Position numbers and translations under genes: made by a program. Source: a virus (Duplodnaviria > Heunggongvirae > Uroviricota > Caudoviricetes). From it: a DNA stretch of 41,280 nucleotides. Positions 4,433 through 16,840 of this stretch are shown here, piece after piece. Each line of letters starts with the position of its first letter. The stretch's first letter is position 1. The notes under the pieces were generated by a model, which had not been told where the DNA came from, made no database searches, and saw only the letters and a program-made list of their open reading frames with translations. The DNA lies in the IMG/VR virus record IMGVR_UViG_2718218131_000003, positions 1 to 41,280 of that record. One strand, written 5' to 3'.

Positions 4433-4490
4433 AAAAAGGGCGGCAGAGCAGTCACGGAGTAAAACTGATACCGCCAAACGTCACCAGAAA
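4433..4490 (-). ncRNA. dicF: DicF small RNA (ftsZ-targeting sRNA)
   Basis: Reverse complement of 4438..4490 reads TTTCTGGTGACGTTTGGCGGTATCAGTTTTACTCCGTGACTGCTCTGCCGCCC, followed by a T-tract (intrinsic terminator hairpin GGCGG...CCGCC); matches DicF as recalled; sits between the ydfA-side genes and dicB as in the dicB operon. Confidence 0.8.
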
Positions 4491-10613: not shown

Positions 10614-11347
10614 TCACTATTACCAAAGATCGACTGCTGACAATCAAGCAGTGGCGCGAAATATACGGACCTGGTAGCAACGTTGTACTGCCAGCAGAAG
10701 AAGCGGAAGAACTGGCACGAATTGCTCTGGCATCGCTGGAAGCAAAACCAATAGGTGCTTTCCACATTGCAGAACAGCGAGTTGACGGCACAAGTGACTA
10801 CCTCAAGGATGGAGAATGGCCTATTGATAATGGAATTATTGAGGTCTACGCCGCCTCACCGATGACGGTAGTGCTGAACGATGTATCTGGACCTCTTGCT
10901 CTTGCTTACAAAGAGCTTACACCTGCGATTATGCGCAACCATATCGCTGTATTCGAACGATACGGAATAACCCCAAACGATAGCATCACTACAATTCATG
11001 CGCTTCGAATTGCGCTGGATGGCATAGAGCGGAGCGACGCCATGCTTCATGCCGGAAACTTTAGGGAAAACGCGAATTCGTCAACCAATAATTTTCGGGA
11101 AATTACGGAAACGTCAACCAACTCTCTGGTAACTCCGGATGGTTGGATAAGCTGTAGTGAGCGAATGCCGGATGATGGTCAGCACGTAATTATTTTATGT
11201 GATGGCGCATTCGTTCTTTATGCGCAATATCGAGACGGTGAGTTTTTTGATGTAGTCCGTGATGGTGATGAATTTTTCGAAACACAGAGCCGCAATGTAA
11301 CCGACTGGATGCCGCTACCAGAACCGCCGCAGGAGGTGCGCCAATGA
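10610..11347 (+). CDS. hypothetical protein with C-terminal DUF551-like domain
   Basis: 245-aa ORF; C-terminal segment DGWISCSERMPDDGQHVIILCDG...WMPLPEPP resembles the DUF551 phage domain. Confidence 0.5.
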   Translation: MITITKDRLLTIKQWREIYGPGSNVVLPAEEAEELARIALASLEAKPIGAFHIAEQRVDGTSDYLKDGEWPIDNGIIEVYAASPMTVVLNDVSGPLALAYKELTPAIMRNHIAVFERYGITPNDSITTIHALRIALDGIERSDAMLHAGNFRENANSSTNNFREITETSTNSLVTPDGWISCSERMPDDGQHVIILCDGAFVLYAQYRDGEFFDVVRDGDEFFETQSRNVTDWMPLPEPPQEVRQ

Positions 11348-11427
11348 ACTGGCCTGAAGCATTTGCAATTACAGGCGTTGCTATGGCTATCGCTTTTTTA
11401 GTATATGTTATTTGTCGGTGGGGGTAA
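11344..11427 (+). CDS. small hydrophobic peptide (27 aa)
   Basis: ATG at 11344 overlaps the upstream stop (ATGA); product MNWPEAFAITGVAMAIAFLVYVICRWG has a single predicted TM helix; not in the ORF track (under 60 aa). Confidence 0.35.
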   Translation: MNWPEAFAITGVAMAIAFLVYVICRWG

Positions 11428-11462
11428 AAACGTTCGCCGGGATTAACACCAAAGGAGGGAAT

Positions 11463-11567
11463 ATGTCGGATGATATATCACTGGCAATGGAAGGTGCGCT
11501 GGCTGTTGTTGCTGTTGTGGGCGTTTACTGCCTGGTTGTGTTTTTGATGGATCGACTAGGGAACTGA
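11463..11567 (+). CDS. small hydrophobic peptide (34 aa)
   Basis: ATG at 11463 preceded by AAGGAGGG (11452..11459); product MSDDISLAMEGALAVVAVVGVYCLVVFLMDRLGN has one predicted TM helix. Confidence 0.4.
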   Translation: MSDDISLAMEGALAVVAVVGVYCLVVFLMDRLGN

Positions 11568-11813
11568 ATTCATTACGATATGGGAATTCCCATATCGGGT
11601 AAAAACGGTTTGCGGGAAAAGGAGAGTTAAGTAGAATTGCTGCGGGTGCTTGAGGCTATCTGTCTCAGGCATGAACACCAAAAGGCAGATAGAGAAAAGC
11701 CCCAGTTAACATTACGCGTCCTGCAAGACGCTTAACATTAATCTGAGGCCCAATCTATGTCTCACAAATGTAGGTTAGCCTCTTACGTGCCGAAAGGCAA
11801 GGAGAAGCAGGCT

Positions 11814-11969
11814 ATGAAGCAGCAAAAGGCGATGTTAATCGCCCTGATCGTCATCTGTTTAACCGTCATAGTGACGGCACTGGTAACGAGGAAAGACCTC
11901 TGCGAGGTACGAATCCGAACCGGCCAGACGGAGGTTGCTGTCTTCACAGCTTACGAACCTGAGGAGTAA
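11814..11969 (+). CDS. hokD: Hok/Gef-family type I toxin (HokD/RelF-like)
   Basis: 51-aa product MKQQKAMLIALIVICLTVIVTALVTRKDLCEVRIRTGQTEVAVFTAYEPEE matches HokD (RelF) as recalled; AAGGAGAAG RBS upstream; the in-frame upstream extension from 11757 may be a mok-like leader. Confidence 0.85.
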   Translation: MKQQKAMLIALIVICLTVIVTALVTRKDLCEVRIRTGQTEVAVFTAYEPEE

Positions 11970-12038
11970 GAGACCTGGCGGGGGAGAAATCCCTCGCCAC
12001 CTCTGATGTGTCAGGCATCCTCAACGCACCCGCACTTA

Positions 12039-12070
12039 ACCCGCTTCGGCGGGTTTTTGTTTTTATTTTC
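12039..12070 (+). terminator. intrinsic terminator downstream of hok
   Basis: Hairpin CCCGC-TTCG-GCGGG (12040..12053) followed by TTTTTGTTTTTATTTT. Confidence 0.65.
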
Positions 12071-12186
12071 AACGCGTTTGAAGTTTTAGATGGTGCCGGA
12101 ATAGAATCAAAAATACTTAAGTAGCGCGCAGGGAGAAGAGGGATGGACCCCGAACAGGGGAGTGCTATTTATCTGGAAGGATTCTG

Positions 12187-12450
12187 TTGATGAAAATCGA
12201 AGAATTACGTGAAATTTTTAGTGAAGATGGCCTCTATACTGTGCGCGTTGAGAATGGTGCTATTGTCAGCCACTGCCGTATTAAATGTTTACAGTCTCAA
12301 CAAAGGAAGAGTGGAGCTGCGTTAATTCATTTTGTGGATGGGCTTGTGACGGATGGTTTTATTTTGCGTGCAAATGAATTTGTCACATCGTTGCCGTCTC
12401 TGAAAGAAGCTGGGATTAAGGCTGGTTTTTCTGCTTTTGAAGATGAGTGA
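12187..12450 (+). CDS. hypothetical protein
   Basis: 87-aa ORF between hok and the DUF968 gene; no recognisable domain. Confidence 0.45.
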   Translation: MMKIEELREIFSEDGLYTVRVENGAIVSHCRIKCLQSQQRKSGAALIHFVDGLVTDGFILRANEFVTSLPSLKEAGIKAGFSAFEDE

Positions 12451-16530: not shown

Positions 16531-16606
16531 GGCCCTTTAGCTCAGTGGTGAGAGCGAGCGACTCATAATCGCCAGGTCGCTGGTTCAAATCCAGCAAGGG
16601 CCACCA
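16531..16606 (+). tRNA. tRNA with CAU anticodon, ileX-like (tRNA-Ile2, lysidine type) or Met
   Basis: 76 nt, acceptor stem GGCCCTT/AAGGGCC, anticodon loop CTCATAA, GTTCAAATC T-loop, 3' CCA; closely resembles E. coli ileX as recalled. Confidence 0.8.
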
Positions 16607-16607
16607 A

Positions 16608-16684
16608 CCGCCACTAGCTCATCAGGAAAGAGCGTCAACCCTTTAAGTTGAGTGTGCGAGGTTCGAGTCCCCGGTGGCGGTCCA
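16608..16684 (+). tRNA. tRNA, atypical; anticodon loop CCTTTAA (UUU/Lys if canonical), isotype uncertain
   Basis: 77 nt; acceptor CCGCCAC/GTGGCGG, D-stem GCTC/GAGC, anticodon stem TCAAC/GTTGA, T-loop TTCGAGT, 3' CCA; position 33 is C rather than the near-universal U and C1-G72 starts the acceptor stem. Confidence 0.5.
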
Positions 16685-16686
16685 GT

Positions 16687-16762
<76 letters not shown>

Positions 16763-16765
16763 TAT

Positions 16766-16840
<75 letters not shown>

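Follow-up and report, generated by a model that had tools for sequence, protein, structure and literature searches.

A complete hok/sok module, a toxin-antitoxin system of type I, is very probably encoded in the nin-like early region of the Qin-like lambdoid prophage that makes up the window, i.e., the whole 41,280-nt stretch of DNA analyzed here. The initial annotation had proposed a hok-family type I locus in the early region of a prophage, and all of its expected parts were found: the toxin gene, the mok leader open reading frame (ORF), a Sok-like antisense gene, and every folding element of the hok mRNA. When the entire window was scanned for Rfam families, RF01794 (“sok antitoxin (CssrC)”) matched positions 11644-11819 of the plus strand from end to end (model positions 1-157 of 157), scoring 120.1 bits (gathering score, 59; E = 5.6e-27). 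The regulatory RNA elements of the plasmid R1 paradigm, namely, tac, the metastable hairpin, ucb, the mok Shine-Dalgarno (SD) sequence, the sokT hairpin, dcb, fbi, and the terminator, are all present, and these R1-type elements of the module are kept across genera. The module is an ordinary copy, with nothing missing, of hok/sok, a well-known membrane-toxin system under RNA control, and is of the hokD/hokW type; it is real, complete, and apparently functional, and its subtype is known and very common.

The window is a complete prophage whose gene order starts with the integrase-side end, an exonuclease gene, the DicF RNA (4438-4489, minus strand), and a repressor and Cro-like pair. These are followed by the replication initiator gene, a DUF551 gene, the hok module, a rem homolog, a DUF968/HNH gene, RusA, and a Q-like antiterminator, and then by four tRNAs and the genes for lysis, head, and tail. 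The hok module thus sits in the nin-like part of the rightward early operon, flanked by the replication genes on one side and the Q-like antiterminator on the other, and points the same way as that operon. Upstream of hok come the DUF551 gene, two small ORFs, and the full hok leader. Those two hydrophobic ORFs (27 and 34 codons) were considered as parts of the module and rejected, both being outside the boundary that is shared with the related prophage Sp5 (see below); the 34-aa product had no match in Pfam, PHROGs, or NCBIfam, and the 27-aa one had only a subthreshold, chance-level match in Pfam and nothing in NCBIfam.

The toxin gene hok (11814-11969, plus strand) codes for a 51-aa protein that had been described as near-exactly HokD/RelF-like and is in fact identical to K-12 HokD at 51/51 positions. 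It matched the Pfam HOK_GEF domain with 82.9 bits (cutoff, 22), and the NCBIfam Hok subfamily model with 48.5, below the cutoff of 73; the identical protein is named HokD by RefSeq. The SD sequence of hok, AGGAG, is found at 11800-11804 (plus strand), which is where the similarity to the hokD gene of the K-12 Qin prophage starts. The larger in-frame upstream ORF, recognized in the initial annotation as mok-like, starts with the ATG at 11757 and extends to the end of hok (11757-11969, plus strand; 70 aa), so that its product is an N-terminally extended Hok, as is the case with K-12 mokC. Its SD sequence, GAGG (11745-11748, plus strand), is invariant in 22/22 homologs; in the full-length fold, it is hidden by ucb, and in the Rfam consensus structure it pairs with dcb. 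RefSeq annotation of this stretch includes only the toxin coding sequence (CDS), with neither mok nor Sok.

The mok start codon is kept in 21 of the 22 homologs, but the frame of mok relative to hok is not. With the 57-nt spacing seen here and in the hokC-type loci, mok is in frame and specifies an extended Hok of 69 or 70 aa; the 58-nt spacing of other homologs results in an ORF of 56 to 69 aa in the +1 frame, and the 56-nt spacing of a few homologs results in a 19-codon ORF. Conservation of the start codon and the SD sequence, but not of the frame, agrees with a leader that matters through being translated and not through the protein it yields.

The putative hok promoter (11610-11637, plus strand) consists of a −35 hexamer TTGCGG (11610-11615), a 16-nt spacer, and a −10 hexamer TAGAAT (11632-11637). 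The −10 pattern TAnnAT is nearly invariant in 22 homologs, with variable flanks, and the whole promoter stretch is identical in hokW of Sp5. A consensus promoter scan picked up neither this promoter nor that of the Sok gene because their −35 or −10 hexamers are weak (the −35 hexamer of hok has only 3 of 6 matches); both promoters were placed by homology, spacing, and mutagenesis data from Sp5. The predicted full-length hok mRNA of ∼420 nt (11644-12063, plus strand) runs from GGGUGCUU to the T-run of the terminator; its 5′ end, 7 nt past the −10 box, was set by position 1 of the Rfam model. The minimum free energy (MFE) of this RNA is −170.3 kcal/mol (z = −6.93 relative to shuffled sequences). 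The alignment with homologs from Escherichia, Shigella, Kluyvera, Pseudocitrobacter, and Erwinia extends from ∼11630 to exactly 12031 and stops there, so the cross-genus similarity delimits a unit that extends from the −10 box to the end of the 3′ element. As noted before, a terminator follows hok: the intrinsic terminator of the mRNA (12038-12063, plus strand) is formed by a hairpin at 12038-12055 with 7 pairs, 5 of them G-C, and the subsequent T-run. It is common to K-12 Qin and absent from Sp5.

The 5′ end of the mRNA is the translational activator element tac (11644-11655, plus strand), which has three mutually exclusive partners: the fold-back inhibitory element fbi, ucb, and a metastable partner at 11663-11672. 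In the 22-sequence alignment, tac/fbi pairs were found in 95.8% of the cells, tac/ucb pairs in 97.4%, and pairs of tac with 11663-11672 in 98.2%, compared to 25 to 54% in the slid controls of these three pairings. The fbi element (12019-12031, plus strand), the 3′ partner of tac in the full-length MFE structure, comprises repeats I6 and I3 and shows a perfect 9-nt complementarity to the 5′ end plus an imperfect 18-nt one; its GCACCC is invariant, and cross-species similarity stops right after it. One compensatory pair supports tac/fbi: in the Kluyvera clade (four sequences), G11655 is replaced by A and its fbi partner C by U, turning a G-C pair into A-U. Just upstream of fbi, a G+C-rich hairpin at 11976-11999 (plus strand; helix 16, 86% paired) probably forms, by analogy with the R1 model, the 3′ terminus that protects the mRNA once it has been processed to its truncated form. 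The imperfect inverted repeat that had been pointed out near 11655-11690 consists of CTATCTGTCT (11656-11665) and AGGCAGATAG (11683-11692) and is part of repeat I1 (11645-11665/11683-11703). It forms a 5′ hairpin (11656-11692, plus strand) within the tac/ucb stem that is ∼92% (92.3%) paired in 22 homologs from several genera, with two compensatory pairs.

The ucb element, or anti-SD, AAGCCCCAG (11697-11705, plus strand) is the partner of the mok SD sequence in the closed form and of tac in the open form. In the full-length MFE structure, positions 11699-11704, within the ucb sequence GCCCCAG (11699-11705), pair with 11744-11749, and these pairs are 100% conserved wherever letters are present in the alignment. 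In the open or truncated form, the partner of the mok SD sequence is the dcb core GCCUC (11778-11782, plus strand); all five pairs of this stem (11745-11749/11778-11782) are likewise 100% conserved where letters are present, and GCCTCTT at dcb is invariant in the homolog alignment. Between the two arms lies the sokT target hairpin (11752-11776, plus strand) of the Rfam consensus; its 5′ arm contains the mok AUG (11757-11759), and its loop (11761-11767) includes CUCA, a YUNR-type motif. In the cross-genus MAFFT alignment, no more than 62% of the inner sokT hairpin is paired. The probable cause is misalignment of a hypervariable patch, as the hairpin forms in most variants when they are folded individually: 16 of 18 variants folded singly keep the outer GAGGC/GCCUC stem together with the inner hairpin over the mok AUG.

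These pairings define three conformations of the mRNA. The closed form, with tac (11644-11655) paired to fbi (12019-12031) and ucb to the mok SD sequence, is the MFE structure of the full-length RNA. The metastable form, in which the 5′ segment pairs with 11663-11672, is the MFE structure of 3′-truncated RNAs, and the open form, in which this segment pairs with 11697-11703 (tac/ucb), is both the MFE structure of the nascent 67-mer and the one in the Rfam consensus. The entire full-length structure is 86.6% paired in the 22-sequence alignment versus 39 to 45% when slid, a comparison that, like that of the three tac pairings, favors the tested structures since they were taken from the window sequence itself. 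Double-sided pair changes in this structure number 33 against a mean of 23.9 after shuffling. Here as in the other pairings described above, many of the supporting pairs are invariant and hence uninformative for or against a structure.

In constrained folding of the full-length RNA, adopting the open conformer (tac/ucb plus SD/dcb) takes +13.8 kcal/mol; with the 3′ end past ∼12006-12016 removed, the penalty is only +0.8 to +1.5 kcal/mol. The energy model thus predicts a switch that agrees with activation by 3′ processing in the R1 model (PMC9841398). The textbook open tac/ucb form was also considered as the unconstrained MFE structure of the 3′-truncated mRNA, and was rejected: folding returned the metastable 5′ hairpin, with the open form ∼1 kcal/mol above it. 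This slight preference of the truncated RNA for the closed/metastable structure does not exceed the error of the energy model.

A Sok-like antisense RNA had been anticipated on the minus strand around 11740-11830. Its gene was indeed detected in silico on that strand, with the RNA located some 50 to 60 nt to the left of the expected position: the predicted Sok RNA of ∼77 nt extends from 11765 to 11689 (minus strand), based on alignment to the curated K-12 sokC and sokB sequences and on folding, and the interval guessed earlier takes in the Sok promoter and 5′ end while leaving out the greater part of the RNA. Placing Sok on the plus strand, as the Rfam “sok” match would suggest at face value, was rejected after a K-12 control, in which RF01794 hit the strand of hokC and hokB, opposite sokC and sokB. 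The model is therefore built in the hok-sense orientation, so that a plus-strand match puts Sok on the minus strand.

The predicted Sok starts with a single-stranded 5′ tail that is complementary to the mok start, followed by a long terminator hairpin (11751 to 11695) and then by UUUUCUCU. The 77-nt RNA folds with −32.2 kcal/mol (z = −6.25), compared to −21.2 for the plus strand. In 24/24 homologs, the Sok-sense strand is more stable than its complement, by 3.7 to 15.7 kcal/mol, and this gap arises from G-U pairs, pointing to an RNA that is encoded on that strand. Across the 24 sequences, the pairing of the hairpin amounts to 92.8%, with 3 covarying pairs. In the hokD/hokW clade, the hairpin carries a 16- to 18-nt extension relative to the hokC-type loci and to the Rfam consensus; this extension is a lineage feature that is common to Escherichia and Kluyvera copies and is not peculiar to the window.

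The predicted Sok promoter (11800 to 11772, minus strand) has a −35 hexamer TTGCCT (11800 to 11795), a 17-nt spacer, and a −10 hexamer TAACCT (11777 to 11772). Both hexamers are weak matches to the consensus, and the entire stretch is identical to that of Sp5, where sokW, a homolog of the Sok predicted here, has been experimentally detected. Changing TAGGTTA of sokW to CCGGCTC, which produced a promoter-less mutant, abolished protection against HokW (PMC8621323); the mutated TAGGTTA is the complement of the Sok −10 box predicted here.

Taken with the R1 model, these elements suggest the following mechanism. The constitutive promoter with the −10 box at 11632-11637 would produce a stable mRNA of ∼420 nt, whose 5′ end (tac, 11644-11655) would be clamped onto its 3′ end (fbi, 12019-12031). 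With the RNA thus closed, ucb (11697-11705) would mask the mok SD sequence, and both ribosomes and Sok would be excluded; during transcription, the metastable 5′ hairpin could serve the same masking function. Slow 3′ trimming would then take off fbi, allowing tac/ucb and mok SD/dcb pairing and exposing the mok start and the sokT hairpin. As long as short-lived Sok is present, its 5′ tail would pair with the mok start, blocking translation of mok and, through coupling, of hok, and the duplex would be degraded. Once the Sok supply ends, mok and hok would be translated and the 51-aa Hok would damage the inner membrane. The sequence elements, pairings, conservation, and energetic switch are observed properties of this locus; its transcription, 3′ processing, RNase III cleavage, and toxicity would be expected to follow those of R1 hok/sok and Sp5 hokW-sokW.

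The closest of the named systems is hokW-sokW of Sakai prophage 5 (Sp5; Stx2 phage VT2-Sakai), which shares ∼94% nucleotide identity with positions 11600-12034 of the window, with clean edges, and also belongs to a lambdoid prophage. The Mok/Hok proteins are identical at 63 of 70 aa, and the hok promoter, tac, ucb, dcb, the Sok promoter, and fbi are all identical. Both systems have a long-hairpin Sok, with 71 nt of complementarity reported for sokW (PMC8621323) and ∼77 nt predicted here. They differ in the Sok recognition patch just past the mok AUG (GTCTCACAAATG in the window versus GCTGAACACATG in Sp5), in four C-terminal residues of Hok, in the terminator 3′ of fbi, and in the flanks: in Sp5, a small ORF directly abuts the module, whereas in the window a 175-bp insert lies between them.

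The hokD (relF) gene of the cryptic K-12 Qin prophage shares with the window the toxin (51/51 identical residues), the 3′ untranslated region, fbi, the terminator, and the downstream genes rem and ydfU, which are collinear (hokD-rem-ydfU); the two prophages are of the same type, and both have DicF on the opposite strand. However, K-12 hokD lacks the hok promoter, tac, ucb, mok, sokT, and the entire Sok gene, with relBE found there instead. The similarity to K-12 Qin stops upstream at ∼11801, i.e., at the hok SD sequence, beyond which K-12 has the 3′ end of relE. The relBE-hokD operon arrangement of Qin was not encountered, and no relBE pair is found upstream of hok in the window, which agrees with the earlier remark that the locus departs from Qin in this respect.

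The K-12 gene illustrates an alternative reading, according to which the locus would be a decayed, nonfunctional hok relic, like the chromosomal hok genes of K-12 that suffered rearrangement, insertion of IS elements, or point mutations, and would simply hitchhike in the prophage. Such relics do exist: K-12 hokD, with its leader replaced by relE, is one of them, degenerate copies have been noted in a review (PMC4147584), and chromosomal hokA, hokB, and hokC gave no killing (cited in bioRxiv 10.1101/2025.08.07.668861). For the locus studied here, this reading is highly improbable and was rejected since no element is damaged: the locus has its hok and Sok promoters, tac, ucb, mok, sokT, dcb, fbi, and terminator, with no IS and no frameshift. 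Compared in silico with functional hok loci, tac, ucb, fbi, and the other leader elements are not degraded, degraded leader elements being the observation that the initial annotation had named as counting against the proposal. The 94%-identical hokW-sokW is functional (PMC8621323), and the full leader is retained in 78/81 copies with this exact toxin (the window plus 80 viral contigs encoding the identical protein), the exceptions being two copies with the K-12-type relE junction and one with another truncation. The intact-leader form is thus the usual one, and the present locus could serve as a clean reference for intact hokD, the name-giving K-12 copy being a truncated exception.

More distant systems have the same plan. 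The hok/sok (parB) locus of R1 shares with the window its gene layout, tac, fbi, ucb, dcb, the metastable hairpin, and mok coupling, and its Sok likewise combines a 5′ tail with a terminator hairpin (PMC9841398). The two differ in replicon (plasmid in the case of R1, prophage in the window), and in the window mok is in frame with hok. The toxin itself is distant, as HokW is 44% identical to R1 Hok (PMC8621323), and in a plasmid search most records were alignable only over short leader patches. The hokC/mokC/sokC (gef) locus of the E. coli chromosome is ∼75% identical to the window at the nucleotide level from end to end and also has mok in frame; in K-12, it is followed by IS186. The curated SokC aligns with the predicted Sok but, at 59 nt, lacks the 16- to 18-nt hairpin extension; relative to the aligned hokC-type loci, the hairpin in the window is ∼18 nt longer.

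The module is widespread. With positions 11560-12100 as the megablast query, matches were found in 4,942 of 5,426 complete E. coli genomes, or about nine in ten, at a median of 2 and a maximum of 10 places per genome; the CDSs under these matches are annotated as “type I toxin-antitoxin system toxin HokD,” and the best partial matches are 99.8% identical. The same query matched 102 phage records, including Stx-converting phages, with labels such as “gef,” “MokW protein,” and “HokD toxin,” as well as P1-like and other plasmids. A recent survey reported Hok in almost 80% of Enterobacteriaceae genomes, with an approximately 4-fold enrichment in prophages (bioRxiv 10.1101/2025.08.07.668861). Given its wide occurrence in genomes, in phages, and in that survey, the element is to be seen as known and very common. 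The discovery value of this copy is small: hok/sok is textbook material, annotating hokD-type copies in lambdoid prophages is routine, and the relative hokW-sokW has been characterized.

As for the physiological role, the most likely one, proposed tentatively and by analogy with the 94%-identical hokW-sokW, is that Sok would be lost after prophage induction, allowing Hok to hasten growth arrest, lysis, and phage release. The analogy draws on one relative examined in one study (Takada et al. 2021, PMC8621323). In that study, HokW was toxic, and sokW expressed from its own promoter protected against it, partly via RNase III and Hfq; both RNAs were present in uninduced lysogens; mitomycin C treatment led to the RecA-dependent disappearance of sokW; HokW was then found in the inner membrane ∼1 hour ahead of the endolysin; and deletion of hokW-sokW delayed growth arrest and halved phage release.

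The same mechanism could instead serve mainly for addiction: upon loss of the prophage, unstable Sok would vanish and Hok made from the stable mRNA would kill the cell, thereby stabilizing the prophage. On plasmids, this role is established for R1 hok/sok (PMC9841398, PMC4147584), the combination of a stable mRNA with an unstable antisense RNA that is seen here is what such a role needs, and the ∼4-fold enrichment of hok genes in prophages (bioRxiv 10.1101/2025.08.07.668861) is in line with it. Addiction as the main role nevertheless appears rather unlikely: Sp5 without hokW-sokW grew normally when uninduced, the phenotype observed being one of lysis and release (PMC8621323), and the chromosomal hok loci that were tested gave no postsegregational killing (cited in bioRxiv 10.1101/2025.08.07.668861).

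Still less probable is a primary role in defense of the lysogen, in which a lytic phage would shut down host transcription, Sok would decay, and Hok would kill the cell first (abortive infection). On a high-copy-number plasmid, R1 hok/sok did reduce T4 plating and plaque size (cited in PMC8621323), and prophages often carry defense genes (bioRxiv 10.1101/2025.08.07.668861). However, that effect was modest and came from a multicopy plasmid with the R1 locus rather than one of the hokD/hokW type, and hok genes are not enriched near defense systems (bioRxiv 10.1101/2025.08.07.668861).

Sequence variation within the transcript is concentrated in one place. Among 69 unique variants that all encode the identical Hok, column entropy peaks at 11750-11769 (0.6 to 0.9 bits), a stretch that includes the mok start, the sokT loop, and the region matching the Sok 5′ tail; in the same variants, it is near zero in tac, ucb, dcb, the hok SD sequence, and the coding sequence. 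There are 18 variants of this patch, all of which have the outer GAGGC/GCCUC stem and 16 of which have the inner hairpin over the mok AUG. In 5 of the 6 genomes checked, coresident copies of the module differ in the patch. In a nonexhaustive search, no description of this variability was found in the literature.

Such a pattern resembles the diversification of specificity determinants in other antisense systems, a parallel that is offered as a lead and not as a finding, and it would fit the reported absence of cross talk between R1 Sok and chromosomal hok loci. In a speculative reading, positions 11750-11769 would be under diversifying selection and would act as an address code against cross-protection among the hok/sok copies of polylysogens, so that each prophage would control its own toxin only. 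A linked idea, equally conjectural and part of the same reading, is that rightward early transcription after induction could silence the convergent Sok promoter, making Hok an induction-coupled helper of lysis. The contrast between a variable patch and an otherwise near-invariant regulatory RNA provides a small but testable lead on how coresident copies could avoid cross talk.

An additional feature of the toxin gene is the UACG sequence at Tyr47 (11952-11955, plus strand), a candidate site for TadA-mediated A-to-I recoding of Tyr to Cys. Editing of hokD at this cysteine position has been stated in a recent preprint, which also used the identical HokD peptide as a toxic control (bioRxiv 10.1101/2025.08.07.668861). 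The sequence TACGAA at Tyr47 is invariant in 22/22 homologs, whereas the neighboring codons vary.

The most variable stretch inside the hok transcript is a short patch at 11750-11769 that covers the mok start, the sokT loop, and the 5' tail of Sok. This emerged from the column entropy of 69 unique variants found among the window and the 80 viral contigs that encode an identical Hok toxin (L059 to L138), so that the protein itself is the same throughout the set. Entropy in the patch reaches 0.6 to 0.9 bits, whereas the leader elements tac, ucb, and dcb and the hok Shine-Dalgarno (SD) sequence stay at ∼0 to 0.2 bits. Among the 18 variants of the patch, the outer stem is always kept (18 of 18) and the inner hairpin is kept in all but two (16 of 18), and in five of the six genomes checked the patch differs between co-resident copies. 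This variability may mean that the site recognized by the antisense RNA is diversifying in specificity.

The relatives aligned over window positions 11757-11816 (alignment A2 of hok-locus homologs) keep the mok start but differ in the frame it takes with respect to hok. A mok-to-hok spacing of 57 nt places the two in frame, a spacing of 58 nt shifts mok to the +1 frame, and one of 56 nt yields a 19-codon open reading frame (ORF); therefore, the sequence of the Mok peptide is not what is being conserved. The Rfam model RF01794, named “sok antitoxin,” matches the window at 11644-11819 on the plus strand. Taking the strand of this match as that of Sok would be wrong: the model is built on the hok-sense strand and spans the hok leader (157 nt), and in the K-12 control loci (L056 and L057) its matches fall opposite the strand that carries the curated sokC and sokB genes.

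Within the toxin itself, the hexamer TACGAA at Tyr47 (11952-11957) is invariant in all 22 homologs compared across genera, whereas the flanking codons vary, and this codon context fits the UACG motif of A-to-I editing by TadA. In hokD, the Tyr47 position is recoded to Cys by such editing, according to a preprint (bioRxiv 10.1101/2025.08.07.668861). Full activity of the Hok toxin may need editing.

Upstream of the hok module, a 175-bp insert missing in Sakai prophage 5 (Sp5) is flanked by the two copies (81% identical) of a direct repeat of 21 nt, one at 11422-11442 and the other at 11597-11617. The segment at 11434-11453, past the first repeat copy, is similar to the hok leader loop at 11663-11682, and the repeat and insert together may be a recombination scar between two hok leaders. 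Inside the insert, just upstream of the module, lies a perfect 22-bp palindrome, CGATATGGGAATTCCCATATCG (11576-11597), with no T-run downstream of it. Two small hydrophobic ORFs are also found just upstream of hok. One, of 27 aa (MNWPEAFAITGVAMAIAFLVYVICRWG; 11344-11427), overlaps the stop codon of the DUF551 gene, and its homolog in Sp5 abuts hokW; the 27-aa ORF had no significant family match in Pfam or NCBIfam. The other, of 34 aa (MSDDISLAMEGALAVVAVVGVYCLVVFLMDRLGN; 11463-11567), has a strong SD sequence, is annotated as hypothetical in RefSeq, and gave no significant match in Pfam, NCBIfam, or PHROGs.

Very short contigs labeled Acinetobacter idrijaensis and Xanthomonas pisi, as well as a record named Actinobacillus phage vB_Apl-pPE4, also carry near-identical hokD loci, at 90 to 99% nucleotide identity (L017, L022, and H37). 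These most likely reflect E. coli contamination or mislabeling rather than a real host range.

Downstream of hok, the ORF at 12187-12450 is a homolog of K-12 rem (locus L002), relative to which it has a 12-nt (4-codon) insertion, and matches PHROG 340, a family without an assigned function. A full-length gene for the antisense RNA DicF (Rfam RF00039, 76.7 bits) occupies 4438-4489 on the minus strand, opposite to that of hok, an arrangement shared with the K-12 prophage Qin. Four tRNA genes, Met(CAT), Lys(TTT), Thr(TGT), and Gly(TCC) in that order, are clustered on the plus strand at 16531-16840, between a methyltransferase-like ORF and the lysis genes; the Met(CAT) tRNA is called Ile by RefSeq in a related prophage.
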